DNA of 64,000 bases from a virus (Duplodnaviria > Caudoviricetes). The position numbers were made by a program, and so were the translations under genes. The notes beneath the pieces are model-generated. The model did not search any database, was not told the DNA's origin, and saw only the letters and a program-made list of their open reading frames with translations. Below, piece by piece: positions 7,926 to 47,175 of this stretch; positions within the stretch are counted from its first letter, which is position 1, and the number at the start of each line of letters is the position of its first letter. The stretch covers positions 24,657-88,656 of the IMG/VR virus record IMGVR_UViG_3300027007_000012; one strand, 5' to 3'.

Positions 7926-7968
7926 CCCGGCATGGTGCGTCGTGGGGGTTCGAGTCCCCCACCGGGCA
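7926..7968 (+). ncRNA. Mini-tRNA-like element 1 (acceptor-like stem plus T-arm)
   Basis: GTGGGGG-TTCGAGT-CCCCCAC (7942-7962) enclosed by CCCG/CGGG; no D or anticodon arm. Confidence 0.65.
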
Positions 7969-8013
7969 TGGGCCGAGAAAAGTCGGGACTGGCCCACCCG
8001 AACGGAGCAACCG

Positions 8014-9999
8014 ATGAGTGTAGACGACGCGCCCGCTGAGGAGCGGGCACTGATAGAGGAGCACCGCAACGAGATCGCCCGAACCGCCGTCGACGACGCG
8101 GTCGAACTGTACGACCTGGTCTCGCGTGTCGGGTTCATCGCCGAGGACGCCGCCGCCGAGCTCGAGTTCGTCGACGAGGACGAGGGGTCGCTGGCGGATG
8201 TCCGTCTGGCCCTGGACATGCTGGACGAGATGGACAACGCACTCGTGTACATGAACCGACAGAAGCGCCGCGTCGAGGGCCTGTTGGAGGAGCTGGCGCA
8301 CATCGAGGAGGACCTGTAGATGCCGTCGACATCGATCGAGGTGGCGGGTGACGTCGTCAAGGCCCGGTACTTCGGCGAGGCGGAGGGTGACTACGCGAAG
8401 CTGGTCGTCCACCGCGACCTGTTGGCGAACGAGGATGAGGCAACGCGCGTCCTCGACGAGATGCGCGACACGATCGCCCGGGAGGGCCGCTGATGCACGA
8501 CACGTGCCAGTGCGAGGAGTGCAAGCTGGAGCGCCAGCGCGAGTACGAGGCGTCGTACCCCGAGCAGGCGCGCCGGGACAAGCTGGAGTTGGGTGCCGAG
8601 GCGACGACCGAGTTCGCCCGAGAGGAGGCACTGCTGCTGAAGACTGGGATGACCGAGCGCGATGCGCGGGCCCGGGGGCTGATCGACTGATGACCGCGAT
8701 GGATGACCTGCGCGTCGAGCGTCAGCACTCGCGCTACGCGATCGCGCTGGAGAACGTCGAGGCACTCGCGCACGACGGCCTCGAACAGACCAGCGCGAAG
8801 GAGAAAGACGAGATCCTGCGCGAGATCGAGGCGGTCGCGACGGGGGCGTTCGAATGAGCGAAGTGTCGAAGAAACGCGCAGCTGCGATGTTGGAGTTGCT
8901 CGATAAGGACGAGACGATGAGCGAGGGACACGACGACTCGACCGACCCGGAGTGTTGGCGGGAGTCGTTCCTGGAGAGCGCGTTCGAGGAGGCGGTGTCG
9001 ATGGTGACCCAGGCGTCGATGGCCTACGACGAGGAGCACGGAGAGATGAACGACCAGCCGCACCCGATGGACGTCATCCGTGGGGAGAGCCTGTTGCGCG
9101 TCTACGCGACGAGTCGACCGTGGGCGGTCCCGGTCGTGGTGGTCGAGGTCGCAGAGGCGCCGGCGTACTTCGAGAACGGCATGCTGACCGATGTGCGGGA
9201 AGTGTACGCCCGGCGGAAGCCGGGGCTGTCGGCCGACCCGACGCACGTGAAGATCCAGATTCGCCAGGGGCGGTCCCGATGAGCGGCGCGACGCGACAAC
9301 CCTGTGACGTCCGGGATTCGGTGGCCGAGATGTCGACGGAGTCGCTGCTGTTCCAGACGGCGATGACCGACGCCTACGGGGGTGAGGTTGCCGACCTGAT
9401 CGACTGGGAGCTGGACAGAGAGATGCGACACGAGCTCGCCTCACGCGGGGTCGAATGGTAGTGTACGCGATGGTGACCCTGATCGTCTGGTTGGGTGGCC
9501 TGCTCGCGTGCTGGATGGTGTACAGAGCGGCGGTTGGAACGATAGACCACAGACAGTCATGAACAGAGACATGGAGGACGACAAATGGTGAACTGGGGCG
9601 GGCGGTACCCGCCAGGAGCAGCGAACGACCCGGCGGCACCGTACAACGAGCCGGAGATGCCCGAGCCCGGGACCGTGATTACGCACGACGTCTCGGAGGC
9701 GTACTGCGCGGACTGTGACGAGACGGTCGGGCCAAACAGCCCGGACGTCGTCGCGGACATCCTGCTGGACGAGCACCACGGACACCAGGTGGAGGTCGAG
9801 TCGTGGACGGAGGAGGAAGTCTGGGGAGGCGACGATGCCCGGTAGTCACGAGCGCCACCTGGACGAGTTCGGTATCTGTCAGTGTGGCCCGTCGCGATCG
9901 GGGACGGAGCCGATGGCGCTGGAGTACCAGGATGACATGACCGGGCGGTGGGTGACCGAGCAGGTGCCGGCCTGCGCCGACTGCTTCGGGCTCTTGTAG
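8014..9999 (+). CDS. Cluster of about 9 short translationally coupled hypothetical ORFs (8014-8319, 8320-8493, 8493-8690, 8690-8857, 8854-9282, 9279-9461, 9585-9845, 9835-9999); several CxxC microproteins
   Basis: Acidic ORFs with ATGA/TGATG stop-start overlaps. Confidence 0.7.
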
Positions 10000-10019
10000 C
10001 CCGGACGCCCTTTCCGCTT

Positions 10020-10330
10020 CTGCGCGCCGCCCGCGACGACCCTGGTTTCCGGTCCAGGCCGAAATAGTAGAGATTCTGATTATATGCAGAACCCGAGAGA
10101 TGAATACAACTCGCCTCAGCGGCACACACGAGGGTCTCCCGGCGACCAGTTTTCTGGGGTCTCACCCCCCACCCTCTCCATGTCGCAAACGACCGTCCAC
10201 GGGCCGCGTTCGCGGCGTCTACGCACGATTTTCGAAGTTCTCATTTTATGCCTTTTGCTCATCGGCGAACCCTGGTTTCTGCTCCGCGAGCCCCGGCACC
10301 GCATCCCGGCGCATGTAAGATAATAGAAAC
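10020..10330. repeat. About 300-bp non-coding spacer with diverged copies at about 19015-19330 and 21540-21840
   Basis: Shared ordered blocks ccctgNtttccggtcca, ctcagc, cggcgac, cccc-rich tract, ttYYgctcc and cccggc. Confidence 0.75.
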
Positions 10331-10401
10331 ATTTAATATCGTACCAGACCAAGTATACATTGGACATCGAGAAACCGATGGCCAGCTGGAGTGTCAAAGA
10401 A

Positions 10402-10860
10402 ATGGCGAAAACGACCAACGCGGCCGGCGCACAGCAGACGAGCATCGCGAGCGACGCGGACCTCGTCGACCCCACGCAGCACGTGGTGGGGTTTAACGAC
10501 AAGACGATGAAGCGCGCGAAGTGGGAGGAGTACGACTTCGTGGTCACGGACACCGGGAACGTGCAGGTCCGGAACGCTTCGTATGGGGACGACGCAGACG
10601 CGCACACGTACCACGTGGTGACCGACGCGTCTGGCATCCCGAAGTGGTGCCTGCACGCACTCGAGGACGACCACGAGGACGACTGGGCGCCATGCCCGGC
10701 GATGGCCTACCACGCAGCGAGGAAGAACAAGGAGACGGGCCTCGACACCGAGGAGCTGATCGCCAACGGCGAGTACCGTGTCTGCAAGCACGCCCTCGCG
10801 TACGCCCGGAACGAAGCGATCGTCCAGGCCGTCCGCCGGGTCAAGGGAGGCGACAACTGA
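10402..10860 (+). CDS. SWIM-type zinc-finger protein
   Basis: KRAKWEEYDF...NASYG...CPAMAYH...CKHA, similar to haloarchaeal SWIM proteins; SD-like GGAGTG upstream. Confidence 0.6.
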   Translation: MAKTTNAAGAQQTSIASDADLVDPTQHVVGFNDKTMKRAKWEEYDFVVTDTGNVQVRNASYGDDADAHTYHVVTDASGIPKWCLHALEDDHEDDWAPCPAMAYHAARKNKETGLDTEELIANGEYRVCKHALAYARNEAIVQAVRRVKGGDN

Positions 10861-11437
10861 TGAGCACCGTCGAGGTGCTGAACGACCACGGGACGGTCCA
10901 GTACCGCGAGCACGACCTCCAGGTCCGGCGCGTCGACGCGGCGTCGGCGGGCTACGACACCGGGTTCGAGAACGAGTTCGAGCTCCTGGTCGACGACGAG
11001 GTCGTCGCGACCGCGACCGAGATCGAGGCCGAGGGGTGGAAGAATCCGTGGGCCAAGTCACTGCGCCTGTATGGGAAGGCGTTCGTCGACGGGAGGCTGG
11101 ACGGATGAGCCGTTTCATCCAGGCCATGCGTGCAGAGTTCGGGCACGAGGATGCCCGGAGCAACGAGGACTACCGAGCGCCCGTCCGCAAGGTGTACTAC
11201 GAGGTCGACGGGACGCGACTCCGCGCCACGGTCGTCGGGGCCACCGACGAGGAGGCGCGACAGACGTTCGACGAGCTCGCGACCGCTGAGGGACTCGACA
11301 CCGCGGAGGTCACCGAGATCGTCCCGACCGACGCCCAGATCGCGGACCTGGACGACCGACTGTACAGTCACGTGCACCGCAAGGCGTCGCGCCGGGACCA
11401 CGGTGCGCTGAACGCCGCGTTCAACGGGGGCGAGTGA
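10860..11437 (+). CDS. Two hypothetical proteins (10860-11108, 11105-11437)
   Basis: Coupled acidic ORFs. Confidence 0.7.
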
Positions 11438-11904
11438 TGCGGGCGCGATCGCGGCGCTGGATGGTCGTCACGGACCCGGACACGGACTGCGAGTCGCCGG
11501 TGTTTCGCCGCATCCCGTCGAAGTTGGAGGCGCACAAGCTCGCACAGTTGACGGTGCGCGCCTACGACGATGGGACCAGCGCCGGCGTTGTGGAGGACCT
11601 CGGAAAATGACGGGGGACGTTCGCCGACGAGAGCACGTCTACGGGAGGGGGCGGCTCGTCGTCTACGAGGGGAACCCGAACACGTCGACAGCGTTCGTGG
11701 CCGGGAAGCCGGTCCCGAACGAACCCTGACAGTTTCTGTTTTTGCGCGCCGCCCGCGTCGTCGATTCACCCAGACCGCACTGGATGCCACCAGCAGCGGC
11801 TCTCGCCCCACATATGACAGATAATAGAAACATTTAATATCGTACCTGTCATAGTATAGTATAGGTTACTGAGGGAAACCTCGGTGCCCACCTGGAGTGA
11901 AAGA

Positions 11905-13569
11905 ATGACGACCAGCGACAGCAGTGGCAAGACGGAGTACAGCACGGGACAGATCGGCGTCGACGAGGAGCGTATCATCGACGAACTGATCTTCAGCCAG
12001 GCGGAGGGCATCGTCGACGGCATCCGCGAACTCGCCCAGAACGGGATCGATGCACCGAACTCGACGACAGTCGAGATCGATGTCGACCACGAGCAGACGA
12101 TCGTGATCGACGACGGCCAGGGGATGGACCTCAGCGACGAGGAGATTCGAGAGTTCCTGACGAACCTGGGACAGTCGACGAAGATAGACGACGAGGACAC
12201 GATCGGCCAGTTCGGCATCGGCTTCGGCCAGGCACTCGCCGTGGGCAAAGTGACTGTCCACAGCCAGGACTCGAAGGTCGAGTTCGACGCCAAGAACTGG
12301 TTCCGCGACTACCGCCTGTACGAGGCCGAGGAGACGTTCGATGGGACGAAAGTCACGATCGAGCACTACGAGGACGAGGTGCCGGCCGAGGGGTCGAGTG
12401 AGTGGTCGGACCACCTCGCGGACCTGCGCACCCGGTTCCAGTACATGGAGCTCGTGAAAGGCGTCGAGGTCTGGCTGAACGGCGAGCGCGTCTCGAACTA
12501 CGACCCGGCGGATGACCTGGAGAACGCCACGGTCTACGACTCGGAGCTGGCGTACATGGTCCTGAAGCACGAGAGTTACGACTGGCTCGAAGTGTACTCG
12601 GCGGGGCTGAAGGTCACGGACGTCAAGGGACACGGCCTTCGCGGGTACGTGATCACCAAGCGCAACCTGGAACTGAACACCGCCCGGAACAGTATTCGCT
12701 CCGGGTGCGAGGTGTGGCCGGAGGTCGAGAAGGAGATCGCCGATGCACGTGCCGAGATCCTCGCGGACGTCTCGGATTCGAACCTGTCGAACCCAGGCCG
12801 GGCCGCGATCATCCGCCTCGTGCGTGAGGGCCACGACGAGTTCAAGGACCGAGAGGTGCTGAAGATGGCCAACGGCGAGATGACGACGTTCGAACAGGTC
12901 GAGAAGCGGGATAGCATCATGTTCGCCGGCCAGACGGACAAGGCGGCGGGGAAGCTGGCCGACCTGGGCAAGATGGTTCTGATGCAGGGCGACAGCGCCG
13001 TCTCGCAACTCCGTGAGGGGGCGAAGCGGGGACAGCTGACGCTCCCGGAGACGAAGAACATCCAGGCGACGGCGGCCGCGCTCGGCATCAAGAACGGCTA
13101 CGAGATCCTCGAGTTGGACGAGTTCCCGAGCAAGCCCCTGGCACTCGCCCGCATCCTGCGGATCAAGATGGCGGCGTACAGCCCGTACGACCTGGACCGG
13201 GAGATCATCCCGGGAGAGGACAAGACGGCGCGGGCGTGGACGAAGCCCCGCCCGGACACGCTGAACGGCGACGAGCGCGCGGCCATCGCCGACTCAGAGT
13301 TCGACTCGTTCGTCGCGATCACCGAGACCGCCTACACGTCGTGGGCGAGTGAGATACTCGTCCTGGAGCTCTGGCGCATCATCGCGCACGAGTTCGCCCA
13401 CACGGAAGACTCGACGGGAGAGCCGTCCCACGGGTCTGGCTTCGCTCGCCGCTTCCGCAAGATCCTGGACGCGACCCAGCCAGCGGCCGTGGAACTGCTC
13501 GAGGAGATTCGGTCTGACGGCCTCGGGGCAACGTTCGAGCGATACGACCACGGGGTCCCGGACGTCTAA
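11905..13569 (+). CDS. GHKL (HSP90/MutL-like) ATPase with a C-terminal HExxH motif
   Basis: RELAQNGIDA, DDGQGM and IGQFGIGF Bergerat motifs; HEFAH near the C-terminus. Confidence 0.85.
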   Translation: MTTSDSSGKTEYSTGQIGVDEERIIDELIFSQAEGIVDGIRELAQNGIDAPNSTTVEIDVDHEQTIVIDDGQGMDLSDEEIREFLTNLGQSTKIDDEDTIGQFGIGFGQALAVGKVTVHSQDSKVEFDAKNWFRDYRLYEAEETFDGTKVTIEHYEDEVPAEGSSEWSDHLADLRTRFQYMELVKGVEVWLNGERVSNYDPADDLENATVYDSELAYMVLKHESYDWLEVYSAGLKVTDVKGHGLRGYVITKRNLELNTARNSIRSGCEVWPEVEKEIADARAEILADVSDSNLSNPGRAAIIRLVREGHDEFKDREVLKMANGEMTTFEQVEKRDSIMFAGQTDKAAGKLADLGKMVLMQGDSAVSQLREGAKRGQLTLPETKNIQATAAALGIKNGYEILELDEFPSKPLALARILRIKMAAYSPYDLDREIIPGEDKTARAWTKPRPDTLNGDERAAIADSEFDSFVAITETAYTSWASEILVLELWRIIAHEFAHTEDSTGEPSHGSGFARRFRKILDATQPAAVELLEEIRSDGLGATFERYDHGVPDV

Positions 13570-13594
13570 GCGGCCGGTCGCGGCAACCCGGAAC

Positions 13595-13641
13595 GGCGTC
13601 GGTTTTGGCGTGATGCTGCGGATCGAATCCGCTCGACGTCC
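13595..13641 (+). ncRNA. Mini-tRNA-like element 2
   Basis: GGCGTCGG (13595-13602) pairs with TCGACGTC (13633-13640); T-arm GCGG-ATCGAAT-CCGC. Confidence 0.55.
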
Positions 13642-13842
13642 TGGCGGCCTCCGCTACTGTCAAGTGGAGTGACCGCCTACTCCCGCCTGGATGGGTCGGT
13701 TCCGTCTGTGGTAGGCGGCTCGGCCCGTCCCACTCCAGGTGGCCACGGCGTTCGCGATCGGGCTGGCTCCCTCGGGAGTTAAGTGGTCGCGGCCGCGGGC
13801 ACCGAGCCCGTGTCACCTTTCGTACTGCTTCCCTGATACCCC

Positions 13843-13878
13843 GTATGTACGTACGTACGCGCCCATACGTACAGACGC
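13843..13878. repeat. RY-alternating element with TACGCGCC core
   Basis: gtatgtacgtacg-tacgcgcc-catacgtacagac; same core as 31014, 40525 and 63003. Confidence 0.85.
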
Positions 13879-13982
13879 GCATTCTCACCTTCCTTACCTG
13901 TCAGAGTTCAGTAACACTTATTATCGTACCCTGAGTAGGTCTATATGGACTTCGAGAAACCCGAAGGCCAGCTGGAGTGAAC

Positions 13983-15614
13983 ATGACAGATACAGCACGC
14001 CTTGTTGTCAACGGTTATGTAGAGCCACAAGAACGATCGGTCCGGATCGTGTCGATCCTGGGGAGTCTGGCGAACGTGCCGGACGGCCACCGCTTCGAGT
14101 ACCGCGGGATGGAGCTCGAAAAGCGCGTCACCACTGCACGAGCGCGGCGCGAACCCGAGCTCGCCGTGTACGACCCCGATGGCGAGTTCGTCGACCAGTT
14201 CCAGCCTCTGGAGCTCTCGTCGTACGGGATCGTGGAGATGCTCGATACCATGCGCGCCCACTGGGTCGAGACGAAGCGAGCGACCTCTCTGTGATCGAGG
14301 TCGTGATCGCGGTCGCGGTCATGGTCGCTGGCCTGGCATTGTTCTACGCCATGGTCGCGTACTTCGACTTGTGACCGAAAACTGGTATTTACCGGGTGGG
14401 CCCTACCGTGACATGGAGTACCAGAGATGCCCCGATTGATCGAGCGCATGGGTTGCGTTGCCGACCGACTGAGTGACGAGTGGGAACTCGACGACATCGT
14501 AATCGAGCAGTCGGCGACAGCCACGGCGCTCTATCGCCACGAGTCCGGGGCGATCGTCATGTGGTCGGCCGACCCGGGGCATCGCGTTCAGCTGTGGGAG
14601 CCAGACGGCGCGATGGAGACCTGGTTGGACGACGACGTGGTCGACCTGGATTGCGCGGCCGAGACGGTCCAGACGTGCATCGAGATGGTCGAATACGAGA
14701 CCAGCACATCGATGCCACCAGCAACGTCGGCGCCACGTCCGTAACCGTTTTTCCGCGCCGCCCGCGCCGGTCCTGTCACATCGATTGACCACCTGTACCA
14801 TGCTACGTTTCTCGATTACCAGCAAACCCCTCAGATATACATACATTAATATCTGTACCACGCATAGGTACATATAGGTCAAAAAACTGGCCTATCCGAA
14901 CGGAGACTGAGAAAGATGAGATACAGAGTCTACGGCACACGCAGTGGCACCGATTTCCAGGCACCCGTCTACGCGCGGACCGCGTCTGACGCGATCGACC
15001 TGTTCCTCGACTCCGTGGGCGACCACGCGGCCGAGTACGACAACGTCCGAGCCGAGGTCTGGGGTTGACGATGGAGAAGCTGTCGAATGTGGTCCGCATC
15101 GAAGACCACGAAGTGGTCGTCAACCGACTGTACCTGGCCACGCTGGTCGACGACGTCCAGTACCGACTGAGCGCCCTGGGAGACGAAGACGTCGGTGACT
15201 ACGAGGGAGAGTTGCACGAGGCGCTGTTCCACGCCCAGGAGGCGCTCGATGACTGACGACGACGACCGACTCCCGCCGGACGCGGTCCCGGACCCGTCGG
15301 TTTGGATGCCCCCGGACGTGGTGGTCAGCAAGGAGACCGCCGAGGTCGCGCTGCGCGAGCTCGACATCCTGATTGAGCACACGGGCGGCCCGGACACGGC
15401 GGTCGAGGACTGCTGCTCGCCGCTGGCGCTCGCGTACGACCGGGTCGAGAGACTGGAGGGCGAGGGGATCGACCCGTTCACCGTGGGGACGGTCCTGCAA
15501 GTGTTGGTCGGTGTCGGTGAGGAACGAGGCGTCGACCTGTCGGGGGAGGACCCGTTACAGGACGACGTGTTCCAGGCGAGGAGCGAGTTCAGGGACGCAC
15601 TCGGCGTCGAGTAG
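13983..15614 (+). CDS. Small hypothetical ORFs of cassettes 4-5 (13983-14294, 14427-14744, 14916-15068, 15071-15256, 15249-15614)
   Basis: Acidic coupled ORFs downstream of the conserved promoters. Confidence 0.7.
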
Positions 15615-15631
15615 TCGCCCCTCGCGGTTTT

Positions 15632-15680
15632 GCATCGCTGCTGGTGGCATTCCGAGCTCGGTTCGATTCCGAGGCGATGT
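15632..15680 (+). ncRNA. Mini-tRNA-like element 3 (contains a near-copy of the dispersed motif)
   Basis: CATCGC (15633-15638) pairs with GCGATG (15674-15679); T-arm CTCGG-TTCGATT-CCGAG. Confidence 0.7.
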
Positions 15681-16026
15681 GTGGCTCCCTGGCCGGAGAC
15701 GATACGTTGATAGGCTGGTGGAGCCTATGTCTGCACGACATCCCATAGTGGATGTCGTTCCGTTCGGGTGGGATAGCACGCGTCGGGCTGTCTCGGCAAG
15801 GGCAACCACGCAAGTCGAGATCAGAGGCTCGTGCATACCCGTTGTCCGGGGCTTTGTCCCCGGACGCCCTTTGTGACCCTGAGCGCCAGCTCTCAGTTTT
15901 CGCGTATCCTGTCAGTATCCTGCGGGGCCGGTCGCGCTAACCCGGTACCCATGCTACGGTCCACAACTATCAACAATATTAGTTGTCATAAATATTATTA
16001 TATCCCTACCCTGAGTAGTATAGAAT

Positions 16027-17363
16027 ATGGGAAAATCAAAATCCCACTCGAGCGGTGAGCGCGTGAACAAGCGGCGGTACCGCGGGAGCGAGCAGACCGA
16101 GAGCTTCGACCTGCAAGCAGAGCTCGCCAAACTCGGCGGCGACGAGGAGGACGAGGACGATGAGTGAGCGAGCGTACCGAGAGCCGGCCAAGTTCTCGGC
16201 CGACGAGCTGTCAATCGGCGATGAGATCGTGGTCGCCGGCCTCGTCCACGAGGTCCTGTCCGTGGGCGAGCCCGGGAAGCAGTGCCTGGTCCGCACGGAC
16301 CGAGGGGCGTTCTCGAAGGACGGTCTGAGCAGTGGCATCGACGACGGCTCCGTGGAGGTCCTTGGGGGAGGCGACGATGGGCGCTGACTTCGGTCCTGTC
16401 AACGTGCGCTGGGAGGGGCCGAACGGGGACGTCCGCAACCGGGAGTTCGCACAGCACGGTCTGTCGACCGGGTGGATCGTCGGCTACGATGAGGACGACA
16501 ATGCCGAGCGGAAGATACCGCGGAACCGGGTCTACGAAGTGGAGGTGCTCTGAGATGAGCGAGAGGGTCGACGAGATCAAGCGCCGGATCACGGGTGTGG
16601 ACCTCGTCGAGATCTGGGTGAGTGAGGGCGACCGACTGTTACTCGGCATCCAGCCCTACGCCGACGCCGACGGGGAGGCTGTCGCGCACTACCTGGAGCG
16701 ACTGTTCGACGCACGCATCGAGCGGGTCACGTACGACTTCGTCCTCGCCGAGGTGGCCCGATGAACTTCGACGAGATGAGTCCGGCCGAGATCGACGACC
16801 TGTTCCAGGTCGAACCGCAGCACGACCCCGAGTTCCAGATGGAGCGAATGCGCGAGCAACTGGAGTACGCTGGCTGGGACGCGATCGAGGGGCTCGTCGA
16901 CCCCGGGGACGAGTACGTCGTCGAGGAGTCGCACCTGCTGACGCCCGACCCGCTCGACTACACCGACTTCGAGTGGACGCTCGTCTACCGCGAGAAGCAC
17001 GTCTTCGACGTCATCGACCCGTTCGACAGCACGCGAGGGGTGATCCCCGCCAGTCGGGATGGCGAGGACATGATGCAAGCGTTCGGGGAGTTCGCCGAGG
17101 CGTTCCACCTCGAGTGCGAGATCGACAAGTTCCACGATGAGCTCGGAGAGATGGAGCCCGGGGAAGTCGTCCTGCTCCCGAGCGGCAAGCTCCGCATGGA
17201 CACGAGCGACCGGATCGTCGTCTACAACCCGATGTACGAGCCGGTCGTGACGACCGACCCGGAGAACGTCACGGTCGAACTGGTCGAGAGTATCATCGAC
17301 GACTGGCGGGCTGAGATGCGCGAGAAGTACGAGGGGACGCCGATGGAAGACCAGTTCGACTGA
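16027..17363 (+). CDS. Cassette 6 ORFs (16027-16167, 16160-16387, 16377-16553, 16555-16764, 16761-17363), hypothetical
   Basis: Leaderless MGKSKSH start; coupled acidic ORFs. Confidence 0.7.
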
Positions 17364-17431
17364 CCGCGCCCGTTTTCGCGCACCGCCCGCGGCGAATGAG
17401 TTATCGACATCGAGATAGTATCGAGTAGCAG

Positions 17432-17938
17432 ATGGGATCGCGACCGTGGGAGAACCCCGTCACACTCGCCCGGGCCTACGCCAAGCATGGCTCGGCCGAA
17501 GGCGTCGCCGACGCGTGGGGGTGTTCCGAACGCACGATCAGGACCTGGCTGCACGAGCACGACGAGATCCGCGTCCAGCGCCAGGGTCGCCGGCCCTCGT
17601 GGGAAGACGACGACCCGGCGAATCACGTCCTGGAGGACGACGAGGGCTACGAGATCGTCGAATCGTTCGTCCCGGTCCGCGATGAGTCAGGCGAGCTCGT
17701 CACGATCGAGCGCAAGACCGTTCGTATCCACCGTCTCGTCTGCGTGGCCGAGTGGGGCTTCGACCAGGTGGTCGACCAGGAGGTGCACCACATGGACGGG
17801 CACAAGGTGCACAACACGCGGGAGAACCTGATCCCGTTAGACCCGAAGACGCACGGGTTTATGGACCCGGCGCGGCGCTGGCGGATGCCCTGGGTCGGCG
17901 ATTACGAACTGGGCGATCCTGGCCCTGCTGGCGACTGA
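17432..17938 (+). CDS. HNH endonuclease with N-terminal HTH
   Basis: RIHRLV...VHHMDGHKVHNTRENL HNH motif; N-terminal AEGVADAWGCSERTIRTWL helix-turn-helix. Confidence 0.85.
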   Translation: MGSRPWENPVTLARAYAKHGSAEGVADAWGCSERTIRTWLHEHDEIRVQRQGRRPSWEDDDPANHVLEDDEGYEIVESFVPVRDESGELVTIERKTVRIHRLVCVAEWGFDQVVDQEVHHMDGHKVHNTRENLIPLDPKTHGFMDPARRWRMPWVGDYELGDPGPAGD

Positions 17939-17960
17939 CCCGTGGGCTTTTGCTTTCGAC

Positions 17961-18055
17961 GTATCCCCGCTCGCTTTCTGTCGGCGGGTATCCCTGCTCG
18001 TTTTCGGCGGTTGCGTATCCCTGCTCGCTTTCTGACACCGCGTATCCCTGCGGGC
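17961..18055. repeat. Tandem 27-bp repeat, four copies
   Basis: GTATCCC(C/T)GC at 17961, 17988, 18015 and 18042 (exact 27-bp period). Confidence 0.9.
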
Positions 18056-18189
18056 CCCGGCACCGCTTCCCGGTGACCAGACCATGCGATGCTCGGAAAC
18101 TCACAGCAGTCCAAGCCGCTTCGCGAGTCTCTAATACCCTACCCTGAGTAGCATAGAATGAGGAACAAAAATTCCTCACCCGAACGACC

Positions 18190-18429
18190 ATGAACGCAAT
18201 GGAAGACGTAGAAGGACTCCGTTACACCTTCTGCAACGTGTGGCTGGAATCGAACTCTCAAATCTCGCACATAATGGTGAACAAAGGTGGTGAAGATGTG
18301 TGGGAGGAGACGCCAGAGACAATACTCGTCAACAATTCGATATTCGAAGGCGAGTGCTACTTCCGAGATGTGATGAAGGTGGTGCTCGAACCACGAGAAG
18401 ACGAGATCAACGTCAAGATCAACCCCTGA
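18190..18429 (+). CDS. Hypothetical protein (cassette 7)
   Basis: 79 aa, preceded by an 11-codon leader ORF that overlaps its start. Confidence 0.65.
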   Translation: MNAMEDVEGLRYTFCNVWLESNSQISHIMVNKGGEDVWEETPETILVNNSIFEGECYFRDVMKVVLEPREDEINVKINP

Positions 18430-19361
18430 CGGCAACGAGATGGGGCTCCCCATGTGAGCTCCCGTTTTTGCGCGACGCCCGCCGCCCACGACTATCCCAG
18501 ACCATGCGATGATCTTCGATTCCCAGCAGTTCCAGCCGTCTTACGCGTCTTTATATCACTACCCTGAGTAGTACAGAATGGGAACAAAAATCCCAACCCG
18601 AACGATGAGCTACGCAACCCACGTTCAGATTCAGAAGCTGAAGCGAGCGAGAAACGAGAGTCGCTGGCCCTCGGACGAGAGAGAAGACGACGAGTAGAGC
18701 CGACGCCGACTCTTTCCATTTTCGAGCGCCGCCCGGCGTGACCCACCGGCGTTCCCGATGTGAACGTTTCCAGACAATATCAGCCGCTAAACGTGTCTTT
18801 AATACCCTACCAGTGGTAGTATAAGATATGGGACAAAAAATCCCAACCCAGCGGAACTGAGTGTAGAGAGTGTGCGAATAGAGGGAGAGAGTGGAGAAAA
18901 GACACTACGAGTGCACAGTGTGCGTATAATAGAGGGAGAGCTCATCGTGAGAGCCTACGAAGATTTCCCACTTCACTCTGACATCTGAGTGAGTGGGAGA
19001 GCGGTCCACCGTTTTTGCGTGCGGCCCGTCGGCCTCGAACCCTGATTTCCGGTCCACGAGATGATTTTGCTTCCTTGCAGCACCTGAGAGGCGAATACAA
19101 CCCGTCTCAGCGAGGATCTCGAGCGCCTCACGGCGACACGTTTTCTGAGCTACAACCCCCTCCCTGTGGACGGTGCAAACGACTGTAATCGACTGTCAGC
19201 AGCGAGCTCACACGTGCATATTCGAGTGCCTCAGTGTATGTAGAATAACGTATACGACGAACCCCTGTTTCTGCTCCACGCGGGCCCGCTCGCAGCATCC
19301 CGGCACCGTCTCTCTTGCCGCTTCGCTGATATTTATTACCCTACCCTGAGTAGCTATAGAT

Positions 19362-19739
19362 ATGGGACAAAAAAATCCCAACCCGAACGACGAGAGCGAC
19401 GAAATCCTCCCGGCCCTCGACCACCGAGGACTGACGGGACACGGCAAGAAACGACTCGACGAGAGCGAGCTCGTCACCCCGTACCTCGTGCAGACGCTCC
19501 AGGACGCTGACCCGACCATCCTCCGAGCCATCTGTCAGGTGGCCGATGCAGCAGCGTCGGCACGGTACGCACCGATCCAGAACCAGCTGGCCAAGGACGA
19601 GAGTGCCAGCCGAGAGATTCAGCAGGAATACTGGAACCAGCTGGACGACGTGAAGGGGCTCTCGCTCCTCTGCACGGAACTCCTGCGAGACCAGAGAGAC
19701 GGCGTCCCAACCGAGGAGGACCCCCGACTCGGCTTCTGA
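19362..19739 (+). CDS. Hypothetical protein (cassette 10)
   Basis: Leaderless MGQKNPNP start encoded by the conserved hairpin. Confidence 0.75.
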   Translation: MGQKNPNPNDESDEILPALDHRGLTGHGKKRLDESELVTPYLVQTLQDADPTILRAICQVADAAASARYAPIQNQLAKDESASREIQQEYWNQLDDVKGLSLLCTELLRDQRDGVPTEEDPRLGF

Positions 19740-20091
19740 ACACGGGAACCGACCCAGGGCTACCGATTTCGCGCCACGCCCGTCGTGAAAACCACCGCAC
19801 CGATGCCACCAGCAGCGCCGGCCCCGGCGTGAATCGTGCACATCGCGACCAGTGTGCCTCGACGAGCGGCGACCAGGTTTCGCGAGTGGAACCCCTACCC
19901 CGTAGACGCCGCCAACGAACCTCCGAGAGCTGGGCCAGATCGCCGTCGTGAAGGGCCGTCGTATCAGGTGTGAATACTTGCGGGCCCCGGCACTGAATCC
20001 AGGGACACAGCGGCTATGCGATGCTCTGGAACTACCAGAGTTATCAGCCGTTTTACATACCTTAAATACCTCACCCTGAGTAGCTAAGAAT

Positions 20092-20370
20092 ATGGGAAAA
20101 CAAAATCCCATCCGAACCGGCGAGCAGTGCGGCAAACACGACGTCGTGGCCTTCGTGGCCCTCGCTGCGGACCCCTCGTGGGTCGATGCACCGACGAACC
20201 CGGTCACGCCGGGTAACGGCACCGAGGACTGGGCCGCCGACATCGAGGGCGCCGACGGGGGCGTGATCATGAGCGACTGGTCTTCGCTGGCGGGTGCGGG
20301 CGCGATCGACCCCCTGTCGGGACGAGAGCTGAGCGATGAGGAGCTGCGAGAGAGGCTGGGGGTCGAGTGA
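20092..20370 (+). CDS. Hypothetical protein (cassette 11)
   Basis: Leaderless MGKQNP start. Confidence 0.7.
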   Translation: MGKQNPIRTGEQCGKHDVVAFVALAADPSWVDAPTNPVTPGNGTEDWAADIEGADGGVIMSDWSSLAGAGAIDPLSGRELSDEELRERLGVE

Positions 20371-20562
20371 GATGCTGAGCCCCAACGGCGATACGGCGCG
20401 GATCGATGCGCACGAGTGCGAGCTCGAGCCGACCGGCCGCGGAGAGGGGATGCACGAGGAGTTCGAGTGCCGAGTCTGTGGGACGGTCACGACGCCCGCT
20501 GTGGGCGTCCGGCGAGCGAAGCGGCAACGGCTCTGGTGAGGGCCAGCCCCTCGTTTTCGAGT

Positions 20563-20598
20563 GCGTGTACGTACGTACGAGCGGGTACGCACAGACGG
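20563..20598. repeat. Degenerate RY-alternating element
   Basis: gcgtgtacgtacg-tacgagcg-ggtacgcacagac. Confidence 0.6.
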
Positions 20599-20775
20599 GT
20601 GGTGGGACCATAGCTTCCGCTTCTGCGCGCCGCCCGCGACGGCCACCGTCCCCGACAGCCAACGTAGCATCTATGCGCGCTACTCGACAGAGAAACTTAA
20701 ATTCGGGCTCCTCTGGGCTTCTACGCAAGTTTTACAACCGAAGTCTTTATATCTGATACCTGAGAAGTCTTAGAT

Positions 20776-22962
20776 ATGGGACAAAAAATCCCAACCCCCG
20801 AACGGAGCGAGAGCGAGACGAGAGCAGCAGAGGAGGGACGATGATGCGCCCCGAGTCGCCGATTGAGTGGACTGGCGAGGCCCACCTCGTCACGGTGAGC
20901 TGTAGCCGCTGCGGGAGCACGATGAGCGTCGACGAAGATACGGCGCTCTGGTACGACGAGCAGGGACGCGAGCACGTGTGCGAGGAGTGTGAGTGAGATG
21001 CGCCGAGTGCGTACGATGCTGCTGGCCGCGAGAGTCGTCGCTGGGATCGTCGTGTTCCCGATCGCGCTGACCGCCGCGAGAGCTCGGGCCCGGGTGGTCT
21101 GATGAGCTGTCTCGATTGCGGGTCGACGTCGCTGGCGAGCGAACGAGTGGACGTGGTCGGGCGCCCCGACGAGCGGGTGACGTACTGCGAGAACTGTGGA
21201 GAGGTGCAGTACGTGGATGTGATTCGATGATTACGCTGCTGGTGGCATTGGTGGTTGCCGGGCTGGGCGTGTGGGCGTTCCTGCTGATCGCGAGGGAGCT
21301 GTAGCGATGGACTGGTGCCCGGAGTGCGGGTCGATGGCCCGCGTCGACGAACGACGGTTGGAGCGCCAGGACGACAGCGCGCTCGCCAAGGAGGTGCTCG
21401 ACGTCGTCTGCATGCAGTGTGAGTACGAGGGCGAGAAGCGTCGCACAGTGCCCGCCGTGTTCGAGCGGCGGCCAGCAGAGACGGGGCGGGGCGTGAGCGA
21501 GCGCGAGCCGGGTCACCCGCTCGACCGCTGAGCGCCCCGGTTTCGCGTTCCGCCCGCGCCGACCCCTGTTTCCGGTCCACGAGCAAATAGAGTTCGCGAC
21601 GCGTGTGCATACGCTCGTCTCAGCACGATCCCCCAGGGCCTCACGGCGACGGGCTCCTCGGGCCATCACCCCTCCCCTGTGGATGTTGCTCACGACTGAC
21701 TGGGAGCACACGAACGCACGCCTCAGCGCCTCTACGCGCACTTTCTGTCTGGGGATTTATCATTGGCTTCGACCTTGATTTCCGCTCCACGCGGCCGGAC
21801 GCGGCAACCCGGCACCAGAAGTATCAGCCGCTTTACATGACTATATACCTGTACCATGAGTAGCTAAGAATATGGGAAAACAAAATCCCACCCGACCGGA
21901 ACTGGCCGAGAAGCGACGCAAGCTCGTCAGCGAGCTCCCGTTCACGAGCCCCGCCGAGAGCGGCAATCGGATCGTCGTGTGCGTGCAGGACCGCAAGCTG
22001 TCGAAGTTCGAGCGCGTCGTCGCGGACCTGGACCTGGAGATCGTCGAGCGAGAAGACGCTGGGCACTCGATGCAGGGCCGACGCCAGCGCATGGTCCTGG
22101 AGGCGTCGTAGCATGCGCCGATCGACGCCGGCGGACCTGGAGCAGCGCCTCGCCGCGATCGAAGCAGAGCTGCGAGCGATGAGTCGCGGAGACGTCGACG
22201 CGGGAACGTGCCGGTGGCTGCTGGAGGAGAAGGCCGAGCTCAGAGACGAGCGCGACCGGCTGCACGAGACGAGTGGGCGGTGGGCCTGATGAGCGACGAG
22301 GGATTTCTCCCGCCAGCGCCGACGGGCGGCCACCCAGCAGACGCCGTCGAGCGAGCGCGAGAGATCGTCCAGGGAGCACCGGCGACAGAAGAAGAAGTGG
22401 CGTGGGCGGCGGAGGTCCTCGCAGACGTCGAGTAGGGTCTCCGGTTTCGCGCCGCGTCCCCGCCGTCCCCGTCAGTTTTCAGGCCGATTTCAGGCCGATT
22501 TTCGCAGAAACCCTCGAAATCGAGTGCCTCAGAGCCTCTACGGGCCAAAGTCTTTATATTCGCTTATGTCAAAGATTTAAATGGTATGGCAAAAAACCAA
22601 ACCACCCGACGGGAAGCAGAGCAGGAGAACGAGAGCGACTGGTGGAGCGAGTATCTGCGAGAGCTCGACGAGATCGTTGTGGGAGTGCTCCCAGCCGAGT
22701 CAGATGCGGCACGCCGGCTCGCAGCAGACGAGTACCCGACGTGGAGCCAGCGATGAGTGACGAGACCGGAGAGGCGTGTGCGAGGGGAGTCGAGAGTGCG
22801 AGCAGTGAGCGAGAGCGTGTGCTGGTGAGAGACGTGACCGCCGTCGCGCAAGACCTGGAGACTATGTCGGACCACGATCACTTGAGAAGCAGCCGCATGC
22901 TCGAGAAGACGGCGCGAGAGATCGTCGACGCAGTGCACGTGTACGCAGACGACGACGCGTAG
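20776..22962 (+). CDS. Microprotein ORFs of cassettes 12-14, including CPxCG-type zinc fingers, a short membrane peptide, 21872-22111 and 22586-22756
   Basis: MDWCPECG and MSCLDCG-type starts; leaderless MGQKIP, MGKQNP and MAKNQ starts. Confidence 0.6.
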
Positions 22963-23686
22963 GGAGAGGGGTTGCCGATTTTTTTGGTGCTGTCCGTGAG
23001 CGCCGGAAACGCGCGCCGCCCGTCGCCCGTCTTTCGTGTGTGCAACCGCATGGCTGGGTGAGAGAGCGAGCAGGAGATGAGCAGGAGCGTGTGCAGTAGA
23101 GCCCCCCGCTCGCGGGCCCCACCAAGAGCTGGTGCGCGGCCGGGACCCATTTAGACCTACTTTTACCGCGACACTGATTTTCAGGGATGGGACCGAAACG
23201 AATCACTATACTATCTCACATCAATCCAGTCTTTGTCTTCAAACTCGGTGGCACAGATGTTACACAAATCGATGTCAACTTCTTTCGTTGTCCCGTCCTG
23301 GCGGTCAATCTCAAGGTGATGTTCAGATCCAGTCCTATCGTTACAAACTGAGCACTCCATTTTTAGAAAGATTACAGGTGAACCGTTTTAGTCGTATTCC
23401 CCCTGATCAGTGTCCCACTAAGGTGTTTTCGTGGTGTTGATTCGATTTGATCTACTTTTTACGGGCACCCTGTTTTCAAGCAGTCGCCTCTGGTGGCATC
23501 CAGTGCGGTGACATGAACCAGGTCCATTGACCCTAATGTACCCTTATTTCGAAGCATAACGAAAATTATATATCCGTTCCCTGACTATCTCCATATGTCC
23601 TCCTTGGAACGGAGTGACGCATTGCATGAAGCGAACGAACGACCGGCCTGGAGACCCGGTCACGACCCCGAGAAGCACCGCTTCGG

Positions 23687-27431: not shown

Positions 27432-27473
27432 CCCCCACCCCCGAGAGGCCGAATACAGGTCTCCGGGAGCTGC

Positions 27474-27515
27474 GCCCTTCTGGGATTCGGGTCGGTTCGA
27501 TTCCGACCAGGGCCA
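27474..27515 (+). ncRNA. Mini-tRNA-like element 4
   Basis: GCCCT (27474-27478) pairs with AGGGC (27509-27513); T-arm GTCGG-TTCGATT-CCGAC. Confidence 0.7.
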
Positions 27516-29545: not shown

Positions 29546-29555
29546 TTCTGAAACG

Positions 29556-30984: not shown

Positions 30985-31013
30985 AAAAAACCCCACTCGA
31001 TGCCACCAGAGGC

Positions 31014-31047
31014 GTATGTACGTACATACGCGCCCATACGTACGCCC
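31014..31047. repeat. RY-alternating element with TACGCGCC core, next to a dispersed-motif copy
   Basis: gtatgtacgtaca-tacgcgcc-catacgtacgccc, between TerS and TerL. Confidence 0.85.
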
Positions 31048-31075
31048 CTCCTGGCACCCCTGAAGCCCTCCCCAG

Positions 31076-40191: not shown

Positions 40192-40518
40192 GTGTACGTC
40201 GAAGACCTCTCCGCTGGCTACTGGATGGCCACCCTTGCCGTCGAACAGTGGGACCAGGACTACGGCGCGATGGACTACCTCGACCACGGAACGCTGTCCG
40301 ATTTCGTCTACGGGCGAGACGATCACCCACTGGTCGTCAGGGAGGAACGGCATCAGGCGACATACATCCCGGTCTACCCGGAAAGTTCGATCCCACGAGA
40401 CACGCTATTTGTCCCCGGCGACACGGATGACCCCGCATGGGATCGGGAATGTGTACTTATCGCAAAGGCGACACATGCGGTAAAACTACTTCAGTTCTTG
40501 AGCGAGGACCCCCTCTAA
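40192..40518 (+). CDS. Hypothetical protein
   Basis: GTG start with GGAG upstream; start uncertain. Confidence 0.55.
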   Translation: MYVEDLSAGYWMATLAVEQWDQDYGAMDYLDHGTLSDFVYGRDDHPLVVREERHQATYIPVYPESSIPRDTLFVPGDTDDPAWDRECVLIAKATHAVKLLQFLSEDPL

Positions 40519-40524
40519 ACCCCC

Positions 40525-40560
40525 GTACGTACATATGTACGCGCCCATATGTACGTGCAG
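40525..40560. repeat. 36-bp site identical to 63005-63040, with 13-8-13 inverted-repeat architecture
   Basis: gtacgtacatatg-tacgcgcc-catatgtacgtgc(ag). Confidence 0.95.
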
Positions 40561-41061
40561 AAGGGTAGAGGTTCTGAAAGACATTAGGTAGGGAATCTTT
40601 CATGGTGACCCCCGGCGACCCCCTTTCCAGACCCCAACCCCCACCCTGTAGGCCCTGTAAACGCCTCTCCGGGCACTTCGGACCCGATTAGTTTCAAATC
40701 GACACTCTCAGACTCTCTATACGTGGTATACGGCATAGCTGAGCGACATTCCAGTCCTTCAGAACAGTTTCCTCTCCGCTAACCTCTCATGTCCGATAGC
40801 GCGTCATAATATTCCTGACACCCCCACGCTCTCGATGCCACCAGCAGCGGTTTCGACGATTCATGAAAGGCACGTAGAAACGGTTTAGGTGGAATCGATA
40901 GACTGGTCTTCATTAAACTAATGAATGAGTCTCGATAGAACAGAAATCTTTAATATCATATCCCACATATTTCTACTTACCCACAGCTACCCAGTGGGAC
41001 GCACTCCAGGAGTGCGTGGAACGGAGACATACATGAGAAAATTGCGACAGAAGTGGGGGCA

Positions 41062-41874
41062 ATGAAAATCAAACTAATCGCAGGCACGCCACACCCCGAA
41101 CGACTGGTGTGTCTCGCAGCACGAAATGACTACCGCGCTGAGGGCGTCATCGACCACTCGTTCGCCGAGATCATGGACGGCGTGAAGGTGGACGACGACG
41201 TCGTCGACGAGCTCCGCATTGAGTGGTTCGACGACGATGATATCGCACGGGACGACCCGTGGGATGCGATGCCCGCAGCGTTTAGAACCGAAGCAGAACA
41301 ACGCTCCCTCCTCAAGCATACCATGAACGAGGGGCACTGGGGCGTGTTCGAACACCCGCAGGCGACGCTCGCGCTTGAGGGCATCACCCGAACAGCGATG
41401 GCGCAGATCACGCGCCACCGACACTTCACGTTCGACATCATGTCCCTCCGGTACGTGACACTCGACTTCGACTCGGTCGAGGAGATGAAGGAGCGATTCG
41501 CCGAACCTGATGAGATCACGGCTGAGGAGGCTGTGAGTCGACACGGCGTGAAGACCATCGACATGGACCCCGAGGAGCGCGAGGAGCTCTGGTGGGAGAC
41601 GATCGCCCACACCGCCCACACCTACAACACACTCGTGGAAGCTGGCGTTCCCCAGGAGGAGGCGCGGAAGGTCCTCGGGATGGGCACGAAGGTCAACATC
41701 ATGATGTCCGGCAACGCCCGGGCCTGGATGCATCTGTTAAATATCAGAGGGAAGGCGAACGTCCAGGGTGAAGCCCGAGACATCGCCGACGGCGTGATGG
41801 GCGAGATGAAGGAGTGGATGCCCTACGTATTCACTCGCTACGACGACATGCTCCCGCTGAGGCTGAACCCATGA
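41062..41874 (+). CDS. thyX: Flavin-dependent thymidylate synthase
   Basis: GHWGVFEHP and the RHR-X7-S motif (RHRHFTFDIMSLRY). Confidence 0.95.
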   Translation: MKIKLIAGTPHPERLVCLAARNDYRAEGVIDHSFAEIMDGVKVDDDVVDELRIEWFDDDDIARDDPWDAMPAAFRTEAEQRSLLKHTMNEGHWGVFEHPQATLALEGITRTAMAQITRHRHFTFDIMSLRYVTLDFDSVEEMKERFAEPDEITAEEAVSRHGVKTIDMDPEEREELWWETIAHTAHTYNTLVEAGVPQEEARKVLGMGTKVNIMMSGNARAWMHLLNIRGKANVQGEARDIADGVMGEMKEWMPYVFTRYDDMLPLRLNP

Positions 41875-45809: not shown

Positions 45810-46157
45810 CCTCTATACCTCTCACGGATTTCCAGAAAAGTACTAAATTTGCCAATTTCGCCAGTACTCAATTCGCACGCACACTGAGCACTCATTTCAC
45901 TTTGAAGAACTCAAAATCAATCCATTGTGAAGAGTTGTATGACACTCTCTCTAATTAGAAAGTATGAGAACTTATTATAGTCCATAAGACACCCATATAA
46001 CGTACTTGGTTAGTGATTAGCGGAATAGTCACATTACAAACTATCGTTGAGAGACATCAAGAGTGGTCAAGTGATGCGTTTTTTAATGGTAAGAAATGAA
46101 ACTTATCAGTTTTAGAAAACTATTTACCCCTCCCTTGCCTACTTATAGTTACCCTCT

Positions 46158-47114
46158 ATGCCGACCCAATTAGCCGTTGAACAGGACAGTCGGAACCACT
46201 GGGCGCTCCTGTGTCTCGCTCTCTATCAGGACGAATACACAAACGGTGCGACGACACGAGAGCTGTACGAGTTGGCCGACGGGGTGTTCGGAAACGCCCA
46301 GGGTGTCTCCGGAGCGTGTTGTAACTTATTCAACGAGCGTCGGTTGATCGAGCGAGAAGACGACCCGAGTCACCCGCGAGCATATCGCTACTATCTGAAC
46401 GAGAGCGGGTGGTCGATGCTCAAGCACATCGGGAGCCCCACCCGGACGCCCGATGGGGGCCGCGTTGGCACGGTCGACCTTCCGGACAAGCCGCCGTGTG
46501 TGAAAGCGCCGAGTGAGTACAAGCAGGTCGAGATTACTGACGATGTGGATGAGGCCGGGCACGATCCTGGTCCGTTTGAGTCGGCGAAGTCGCGACGTCG
46601 GTACTTCGCTGAGCAGAACGAGAAAGAGTATCTCGACTGGCTGGAGAACGAGTGGGCTCCGTCGAACCCTGTCTCGGAGGACGAGACCGACCGAGCGACG
46701 ACGGGTATGGACGAGTTCATCGAACTGAACCGGCGTGCCGATGCAGAGGGCGAGATTCGATTCGAGGGCCACGAGGAGATGATGGAGCAGGTGTTCGGCG
46801 ACGAAGGCGACGAGCCGGTCGAGACGGTCGATATCTCACCCGACTGGGACTGGCTCGGAACGCAGCTCGTCAAACTCGGCTTCGTCGGCCTCGCACGGGA
46901 TGCGTTCGAGGCGAAGCTCTCGCCGAACATCGTCTTCAACGACATCCTCGACACGATCCACGAACACGCGTCGGACCCGGACGTCGACCTGGACCTGGAG
47001 ACCGGCGCCGGCGGTGCAACCACCGTCGAAGCACCGGCCGATCCCGAGCAAGTGTCTCGGTTCAAGAAGGCACTCGGTGTCGACGATGCCGACTCCGGAC
47101 ACGCAGTCGCCTGA
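46158..47114 (+). CDS. Hypothetical protein with an N-terminal winged helix
   Basis: ATTRELY...GVSGACCNLFNERRLIER...YRYYL. Confidence 0.6.
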   Translation: MPTQLAVEQDSRNHWALLCLALYQDEYTNGATTRELYELADGVFGNAQGVSGACCNLFNERRLIEREDDPSHPRAYRYYLNESGWSMLKHIGSPTRTPDGGRVGTVDLPDKPPCVKAPSEYKQVEITDDVDEAGHDPGPFESAKSRRRYFAEQNEKEYLDWLENEWAPSNPVSEDETDRATTGMDEFIELNRRADAEGEIRFEGHEEMMEQVFGDEGDEPVETVDISPDWDWLGTQLVKLGFVGLARDAFEAKLSPNIVFNDILDTIHEHASDPDVDLDLETGAGGATTVEAPADPEQVSRFKKALGVDDADSGHAVA

Positions 47115-47137
47115 CGCACCCCCGATGCCACCAGCAA

Positions 47138-47175
47138 CCCGTTTGGAGCACGGCGGTTCGACTCCGCCGGCGGGC
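47138..47175 (+). ncRNA. Mini-tRNA-like element 6
   Basis: CCCGT pairs with GCGGG; T-arm CGGCGG-TTCGACT-CCGCCG; directly after a dispersed-motif copy. Confidence 0.65.

Follow-up and report, generated by a model that had tools for sequence, protein, structure and literature searches.

Mini-tRNA elements between the genes of a haloarchaeal tailed virus share the design of the host signal that releases 5S rRNA

The 64,000-nucleotide (nt) stretch analysed here, called the window throughout, is bases 24657-88656 of the IMG/VR virus record IMGVR_UViG_3300027007_000012, a genome of 88,656 base pairs (bp) in a single contig with 59% G+C. Nearly all genes of the window lie on the + strand, and six short elements of 40-50 nt, E1-E6, stand between them, each shaped as the acceptor and T-arm half of a transfer RNA (tRNA) (Table 1). 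A first-pass annotation made from the letters alone had put the six on the coding strand outside genes, and our positions agree with it within 1-2 nt. Its description of the build, a T-arm stacked on an acceptor-like stem with no anticodon arm and with stem sequences that differ while the architecture is kept, is true for every one of them.

Table 1. The six elements and the features around them. Element coordinates run from tRNA position 1 to position 73; positions are those of the window unless given as genome; ncRNA, non-coding RNA.
Feature	Position	Strand	Description
E1	7925-7968	+	A1.C72 mismatch; acceptor CCCGG/CCGGG; T stem TGGGGG/CCCCCA; loop TTCGAGT; discriminator A; stack 5+6 bp; linker 12 nt with TGG
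E2 (atypical)	13595-13641	+	acceptor GGCGTCGG/TCGACGTC, 8 bp; T stem GCGG/CCGC; loop ATCGAAT; stack 8+4 bp; linker 15 nt with TGG
E3	15632-15681	+	acceptor GCATCGC/GCGATGT, 7 bp; T stem CTCGG/CCGAG; loop TTCGATT; stack 7+5 bp; linker 18 nt, CTGGTGG
E4	27473-27515	+	acceptor GCCCT/AGGGC; T stem GGTCGG/CCGACC; loop TTCGATT; discriminator A; stack 5+6 bp; linker 11 nt with TGG
E5	29480-29527	+	acceptor GCCCGTG/CACGGGC, 7 bp; T stem TCCTG/CGGGA; loop TTCGATT; discriminator A; stack 7+5 bp; linker 16 nt with D-arm-like mini hairpin AGAC-TGGT-GTCT inside
E6	47137-47176	+	A1.C72 mismatch; acceptor CCCGT/GCGGG; T stem CGGCGG/CCGCCG; loop TTCGACT; stack 5+6 bp (or 6+5); linker 8 nt, TTGGAGCA
GC hairpin GCCGgtcgCGGC, repeat D20	7912-7923	+	ends 1 nt before E1 position 1
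Leader after E1	7969-8007	+	hairpin TGGGCC...GGCCCA 7969-7996, then CCCGAACGGAG; ATG 8014
ncRNA-A	13642-13830	+	abuts E2; ends at T-run
ncRNA-B	15682-15873	+	abuts E3; ends with covarying hairpin, then CCCTTTG
Leader after E4	27519-27562	+	hairpin GCGCC...GGCGC 27519-27537, then AAGAAATCGCGTGTGGAACGGAG
Leader after E5	29529-29558	+	hairpin CACCC-gact-GGGTG 29529-29542, then AGGTTCTGAAACG, ATG 29556
Leader after E6	47178-47215	+	hairpin GCGCT...AGCGC 47178-47194, then ATAGAAATCGTGGGACGGAG; ATG 47224
TATA promoter CTTTAATATCAT and leader	40948-41026	+	hairpin GCACTCC-agg-AGTGCG, then GAACGGAG; before gene 41053/41062
Large terminase with intein	31076-33835		LAGLIDADG homing endonuclease domain; Pfam
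SNF2/PLD helicase	1139-4507		Pfam
Integrase	genome 795-1901		left of the window; Pfam

The two helices stack to a total of 12 bp, as in the acceptor/T minihelix of tRNA, while the junction between them shifts from element to element. In the window, 11-12 of the 12 stack positions are paired, and the range is 10-12 when 11 orthologs are included. The loop is TTCGAnT in five of the six, ATCGAAT being confined to E2. The linkers vary in sequence and in length (8-27 nt), and GG is present in every linker read from the virus and its relatives, the hosts and phage HF2, usually as TGG in the viral ones. In real tRNAs, the D-loop G18-G19 contacts the T loop, and by this analogy the shared GG suggests a stand-in for those two residues.

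Five elements (E1, E2, E3, E4 and E6) begin 16-41 nt past a stop codon, and E5 sits in a 5' leader, 28 nt ahead of the ATG. Relatives conserve the flanking open reading frames at the protein level, which confirms that the elements lie outside genes. A T-run lies just ahead of or inside E2, E3 and E5.

Chance hardly accounts for the set. When the window was scanned for T-loop hairpins, with a stem of 4 bp or more closing a [AT]TC[GA]AN[TC] loop, nine appeared on the + strand, and a bulge-free flanking acceptor helix occurred in exactly the six elements. First-order Markov shuffles of the whole genome, searched on both strands with a relaxed descriptor, gave a mean of 1.4 matches and a maximum of 6. 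This rate covers the four weak, bulged matches on the minus strand, not six clean intergenic elements on the same strand.

Annotation tools pass over them. That they are not full tRNAs, as the first-pass annotation had it, is borne out by ARAGORN, which made 0 calls in the window and detected the nine real tRNAs of the genome elsewhere (2434-4315, outside the window). Rfam returned nothing over the whole window at its gathering score or at E<=10, the tRNA family RF00005 included. An Rfam search focused on 13.5-16 kb gave a single match, below threshold, of E3 to mascRNA-menRNA (RF01684) at 19.4 bits and E 1.2, so far below the gathering score of 42.5 that it is not a member of that family.

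Relatives were reached through the neighbouring proteins. Two flanking proteins with about 78% amino-acid identity led to another IMG/VR record of 89.6 kb (G001). The protein upstream of E6 has few homologues; these gave a plasmid of Halorarum halophilum (CP058532.1, 148,857 bp; G002:C4, E6 locus L011) at 59% identity and two metagenome contigs (L012 and L013) at 42% and 38%. From the terminase through the tail genes the plasmid is collinear with the virus, and it probably represents a provirus of this virus group that is plasmid-like or episomal. It carries 31 tRNA genes, and G001 carries 16.

All six elements recur at syntenic sites in G001, and five of them (E2, E3, E4, E5 and E6) have orthologs in the plasmid. 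The E6 site is filled by a mini-tRNA also in both metagenome contigs, with stems that covary. In L011, L012 and L013, the mini-tRNA at this site has different stems and leads into one and the same arrangement of GCGC hairpin and GTGGAACGGAG leader. G001 has a seventh mini-tRNA, E7r, at 69692-69737.

The stems change while the pairing is kept. In the G001 ortholog of E1, whose linker has 23 nt, the T stem went from TGGGGG/CCCCCA to CGGTGG/CCACCG, and in that of E3 pair 7:66 changed from C-G to T-A. In the plasmid, the acceptors of E3 (CGCCG/CGGCG) and E5 (CTCGCG/CGCGAG) are fully covaried, the latter with its linker hairpin kept, and the stems of E4 covary too (GTCCCG/CGGGAT). Over the 72 stack positions of the six ortholog groups, 46 are invariant, 17 compensatory, 4 changed on one side and still paired, and 5 broken, mostly at 1:72.

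MAFFT misplaced the 5' strands when all 16 elements were aligned, so an 8-sequence subset (A6) and a hand-registered stack table were used. Among these eight viral sequences, 93.8% of the cells are paired and compensatory changes occur in 8 of the 12 pairs. None of 500 shuffles matched these values, and sliding the partner strand by 1-3 columns lowered the pairing to 42-54%. About a dozen G.U pairs occur among 17 sequences. Each would be an A.C mismatch on the opposite strand, which fits selection for structure in RNA of the + sense.

The compensatory changes bear also on a reading in which the elements have no function today, being either tRNA genes in decay or attP-type leftovers from the 3' halves of host tRNAs. 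The virus does have an integrase and a tRNA cluster, the attP of HF1-group viruses is a partial tRNA beside the integrase (PMC8707807, PMC7230728), and the T-arms of E3 and E4 resemble the G001 viral tRNA-Gly and tRNA-Glu. Decay is nonetheless hard to reconcile with compensation and a 12-bp stack in all orthologs, or with the presence of six distinct elements, all with individual 5' strands that match, at 28-70 kb from the integrase. We regard this origin as very improbable.

Two specific sources were tried and rejected. Descent from viral tRNAs fails because no acceptor stem corresponds to one in the 9 tRNAs here or the 16 in G001. For E5 as an att remnant, a comparison with 401 Halobacteria genomes returned the plasmid ortholog and otherwise short matches by chance; outside the plasmid, the top three loci, when read, proved to be partial chance matches that lack a T-arm. 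The exact match to a host tRNA 3' end, which the first-pass annotation had named as the sign of an att-site remnant, was thus absent for E5 from these 401 genomes.

The nearest known design is in the host domain. In Haloferax, a tRNA-like "t-element" lies directly upstream of the 5S ribosomal RNA (rRNA), and its cut by tRNase Z makes the 5S 5' end (PMC4326828), in agreement with the background given in the first-pass annotation. The t-elements are substrates for RNase P and tRNase Z, release a CRISPR RNA in vivo and are used as a processing cassette for icrRNA (PMC4326828). That paper cites Hoelzle et al. 2008 (RNA 14:928) and 2012 (Biochimie 94:940) for the description of the t-element.

We located 5S rRNA in 30 of 31 sampled Halobacteria genomes and found a t-element in about three quarters of the upstream leaders read, one of which contains the published Haloferax primer itele1 (PMC4326828). 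The host build is A-CCGAY, a GG linker, a 5-6-bp T stem, TTCGAnT and RTCGG-C-R, with stacks of 5+6 or 6+5 and linkers of either 9-13 nt or 22-40 nt with one hairpin. The 5S model starts 3 nt past the last t-element pair, and 5S itself 1 nt after position 73. The A1.C72 mismatch is found in most host 5S t-elements (loci L025-L047), in the viral E1 and E6 and in many viral orthologs, with G-C, A-T or G.T sometimes in its place. The mismatch may prevent an element from being handled as a tRNA.

Covariance models built on either side recognize members of the other. The model R2 was made from nine host t-elements only and run on 317 kb of viral and plasmid DNA, where its top eight matches were all viral mini-tRNAs at full length. 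They score 45 bits in L013, 34.7 for the plasmid E6, 30.5 for the window E6 (E 5e-5), 21.8 for the window E4 (E 0.01), 20.7 and 20.3 for the G001 E4 and E6, 19.0 for the window E1 (E 0.05) and 18.6 in L012. The match is significant for E6, E4 and their orthologs and borderline for E1. Conversely, the model R1 from eight viral elements had the host t-elements as its only full-length matches in 71 kb of host rRNA loci, at up to 39 bits; it scores E1, one of its training sequences, at 48.5 bits. On the Halorarum chromosome, R1 gave two weak matches only, both inside coding sequence.

The six elements are real and, by their build, viral members of the t-element class. They share with the haloarchaeal ones an acceptor of 5-7 bp with a T stem of 5-6 bp, the TTCGAnT loop, a GG linker of 8-13 nt or a longer one that holds a hairpin, the lack of an anticodon arm, the frequent A1.C72 and a downstream functional RNA right after the discriminator. 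They differ in being six per genome with individual stem sequences, in standing mostly before protein-coding leaders rather than rRNA, in the 7-8-bp acceptors of E2, E3 and E5, and in the atypical loop of E2. Moreover, the haloarchaeal t-element is a published substrate of RNase P and tRNase Z, whereas cleavage of the viral copies is a prediction.

What follows position 73 is regular. A hairpin begins 0-4 nt past it in all six elements, and the RNA ends there are predicted only. Behind E1, E4, E5 and E6 the hairpin belongs to a messenger RNA (mRNA) leader, and behind E2 and E3 it starts an ncRNA. After E1, E4 and E6 come the hairpin, (C/G)NN-GAACGGAG and the start codon, as behind TATA promoters. 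Leaders of this hairpin and GAACGGAG type follow TATA promoters at 14898, 20800, 41019, 51280 and 57358, and the claim of the first-pass annotation that E1 runs straight into a leader of the promoter type holds on comparison with them.

The mini-tRNA and the promoter replace each other before the same gene. In the window, a TATA promoter stands before the gene at 41053, and the mini-tRNA E7r takes its place at the G001 ortholog. In reverse, the gene that follows E1 is preceded in the plasmid by a TATA promoter and a homologous leader, with no mini-tRNA.

Alternatively, the elements could stay folded and uncut and punctuate in cis. They might shield the upstream mRNA at its 3' end from 3' exonucleases, or they might be bound by a host protein that recognizes the elbow or the T-arm (for instance the CCA-adding enzyme, an enzyme of tRNA modification or a factor associated with ribosomes) and so adjust the translation or decay of neighbouring genes. 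A fold conserved with covariation 16-41 nt past stop codons agrees with this role, as do the D20 hairpin at the same kind of place and the T-run before or within E2, E3 and E5, which fits nearness to a transcript end. However, the hairpin right after position 73 and the replacement by promoters would go unexplained, and the elements share their design with a signal proven to be cut, even in A1.C72 and in the constant spacing to the RNA that follows. Uncut punctuation thus appears unlikely, though it is the foremost of the alternatives.

The D20 hairpin motif is also ahead of E2 (13573-13584) and of two promoter cassettes (15920 and 21787). As a possible role, it would cap the 3' end of the upstream mRNA once RNase P has cut.

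E2 and E3 are of another kind. The first-pass annotation had all six punctuating operons, and for these two this was not borne out, as the sequence directly downstream is a conserved ncRNA and not a gene. ncRNA-A and ncRNA-B, of about 190 nt each, are unannotated, highly structured with compensatory changes, and more conserved than the neighbouring genes. Their indels are not multiples of 3, and both end in a terminator-like hairpin or T-run ahead of the next promoter.

ncRNA-A is about 90-92% identical to its G001 counterpart, compared with about 80% for the flanking DNA, and is partly conserved in the plasmid. RNAalifold predicted 81 pairs for E2 and ncRNA-A together, with compensatory changes. 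The ncRNA-B core GTTCCGTTCGGGTGGGATAGCACGCGTCGGGCTG is nearly invariant across the window, G001 and the plasmid, whose neighbouring proteins there are 36-79% identical. An exact 20-mer of this core was found only in the G001-type virus among viral and metagenome contigs and nowhere in genome contigs, and neither ncRNA has a match in Rfam. E2 and E3 abut these conserved structured RNAs in three genomes, an arrangement that parallels the host t-element with 5S rRNA.

Such constancy of place speaks also to a role in trans. The elements might be decoys or sponges for tRNA-directed defence nucleases or tRNA-binding proteins, or small RNAs that function after CCA addition. They keep the tRNA elbow, in the T loop and the linker GG, which many tRNA-binding proteins read, and the viruses invest in tRNA biology with 9 tRNA genes here and 16-31 in the relatives. 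Nevertheless, the missing anticodon arm means that they cannot decoy anticodon nucleases, the individual stems and the conserved position at leaders and ncRNAs point to a role in cis, the host uses the same design purely for rRNA processing, and no defence or counter-defence gene is linked to them. The decoy idea, put forward in the first-pass annotation, gained no support and seems improbable to us, somewhat less so than decayed remnants.

Because the design is the same as that of the host 5S-releasing signal, the virus most likely cuts its long transcripts with the tRNA-trimming enzymes of the host. Long viral RNAs transcribed rightward would contain the elements, which would fold as the upper half of a tRNA. 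Host RNase P would cut at position 1 and free the 3' end of the upstream mRNA, and host tRNase Z would cut after the discriminator at position 73, so that the downstream RNA begins exactly at the hairpin. At E1, E4, E5 and E6, the latter cut would release an mRNA whose leader is akin to those of promoter-started mRNAs (hairpin and GAACGGAG); at E2 and E3, it would release a structured ncRNA of about 190 nt, as the host t-element does for 5S rRNA. The terminal hairpins would then protect the new ends. With 9 tRNA genes of its own, the virus depends on both of these enzymes already.

HF2 provides a further case with a mapped transcript. R2 has two full-length intergenic matches in this phage (AF222060.2; 2905-2946 and 4377-4413; loci L066, L067 and L070). 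Behind each come a hairpin, GTGACACCG and an ATG, and the record annotates neither match. Primer extension in HF2 placed a 5' end at T-4384, with a TATA box upstream (PMC8707807). Conserved non-functional "tRNA-like sequences" have been noted in HF1-group haloviruses and flagged for study (PMC7230728, PMC8707807). The cases in those papers are the attP, which is a partial tRNA-Thr, and, ahead of the terminase gene, an aberrant "tRNA-Pro"; neither HF2 match is discussed there.

Several observations weigh against processing by these enzymes. The HF2 end T-4384 falls about 7 nt inside the second match, so some elements are promoter-proximal and their 5' acceptor strand is missing from that transcript, and from the same primer extension no end is reported where tRNase Z is predicted to cut (PMC8707807). 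E2 and E5 are detected by neither R1 nor R2, and R2 matches the T-arm alone in E3; these three have the longer acceptors (7-8 bp) and linkers. In the plasmid ortholog of E2, the first and last loop bases covary from A..T to G..C, so this atypical loop may have 5 nt rather than 7. The RNAfold energies of the elements with their flanks are no better than those of shuffles (z about 0, except -2.1 for E5). For the isolated elements, the proposed fold is either the minimum or, when enforced, 1.0-5.3 kcal/mol above it. Lastly, the comparative set is small, with five related genomes or contigs.

On balance, we put the probability that the elements are t-element-type processing signals for RNase P and tRNase Z at roughly two in three, as judged from sequence comparison. 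The comparative evidence speaks well for a use as transcript punctuation, which would apply to four of them. Cleavage of viral RNA by the host enzymes, as the first-pass annotation proposed, thus stands in part: the t-element build, the reciprocal model matches, the hairpins on the 3' side and the promoter swaps argue for it, while two of the six marks head ncRNAs.

Transcript punctuation by tRNA shapes is known from mitochondria, including the t-elements of plant mitochondria (Forner et al. 2007, PMC1920247; reviewed in PMC3790967). There too, tRNA shapes stand between genes, and the cuts by RNase P and tRNase Z make mRNA 5' and 3' ends. The marks differ, however, as those of animals are functional tRNAs and the plant t-elements are fuller tRNA-like folds, whereas the viral ones are minimal and without an anticodon arm. 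The likeness is one of mechanism, not ancestry.

Two other systems release RNA in a similar manner. In the long transcripts MALAT1 and NEAT1, the tRNA-like folds mascRNA and menRNA are acted on by RNase P and/or tRNase Z to mature the neighbouring RNA. In the TMER units of murine gammaherpesvirus 68, tRNase Z frees the hairpin RNAs that follow a tRNA-like unit, much as ncRNA-A and ncRNA-B lie behind E2 and E3. Unlike the elements here, both are eukaryotic or herpesviral and cloverleaf-like, with an equivalent of the anticodon arm.

Other features of the leaders and spacers were observed. A promoter cassette (repeats D2, D3 and D5) consisting of an AT-rich box, CCCTGAGTAG, a hairpin with A-rich loop ATGGGAnAAAAAATCCCA and the CCCGAACGGAG leader heads many small early genes at 7500-23100 of the window (e.g. 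16010, 18143, 18811, 19345, 20075, 20759 and 21855). Past the E4 leader, the ATG at 27570 opens a very short upstream open reading frame of 8 codons (27570-27596) before a second ATG at 27597, and another of 10 codons lies at 41033-41065; in both, the stop codon overlaps with the beginning of the main gene (TGAcATG and ATGA). The repeat CCGTTTTTGCGCGCCGCCCGC ends early genes at 10002, 11724, 14733, 17358, 18450, 18704 and 20605, and its T-run suggests archaeal terminators.

The palindrome-rich TGTACGTACGTACGCGCCCATACGTACA occupies long spacers, usually before a promoter (5979-6025, 13833-13879, 20566-20597, 31008-31054, 40515-40561 and 62995-63041). The motif GATGCCACCAGCAGCGG occurs in both genes and spacers, on the + strand at 5938, 11774, 23677, 30990, 35701, 40825 and 50623 and just upstream of E6, and as the reverse complement at 28836, 32107, 37083, 38315 and 60960 and in the E3 linker. 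It may be a protein-binding or modification site.

Left of the window, Pfam identifies a DNA ligase, a family B DNA polymerase, a UvrD helicase and an Eco57I-type methylase, besides the integrase. The presumed capsid protein and one 4-kb stretch had no match in a 50,697-record phage collection.

Taken further, the comparison hints at a modular "RNA 5'-end generator" in haloarchaeal tailed viruses, in which a TATA promoter and a host-mimicking mini-tRNA would be interchangeable before the same hairpin leader. It would be true tRNA punctuation, would also mature both ncRNAs and would use A1.C72 as a "cut but do not charge" mark. We offer this fuller scheme tentatively, at a little under even odds.

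Searches of PubMed Central and bioRxiv returned no report on t-elements in archaeal viruses, and this virus would be the first archaeal one found with tRNA punctuation, provided that the cuts take place. For annotation, the gain is a set of elements that tRNA finders and Rfam miss. If true, the processing would point to two new conserved viral ncRNAs and would supply exact cleavage coordinates and natural, sequence-diverse t-elements for the RNA-release cassettes already in Haloferax genetics. It would also explain how discrete stable mRNAs arise from very long viral transcripts, such as those of HF2.

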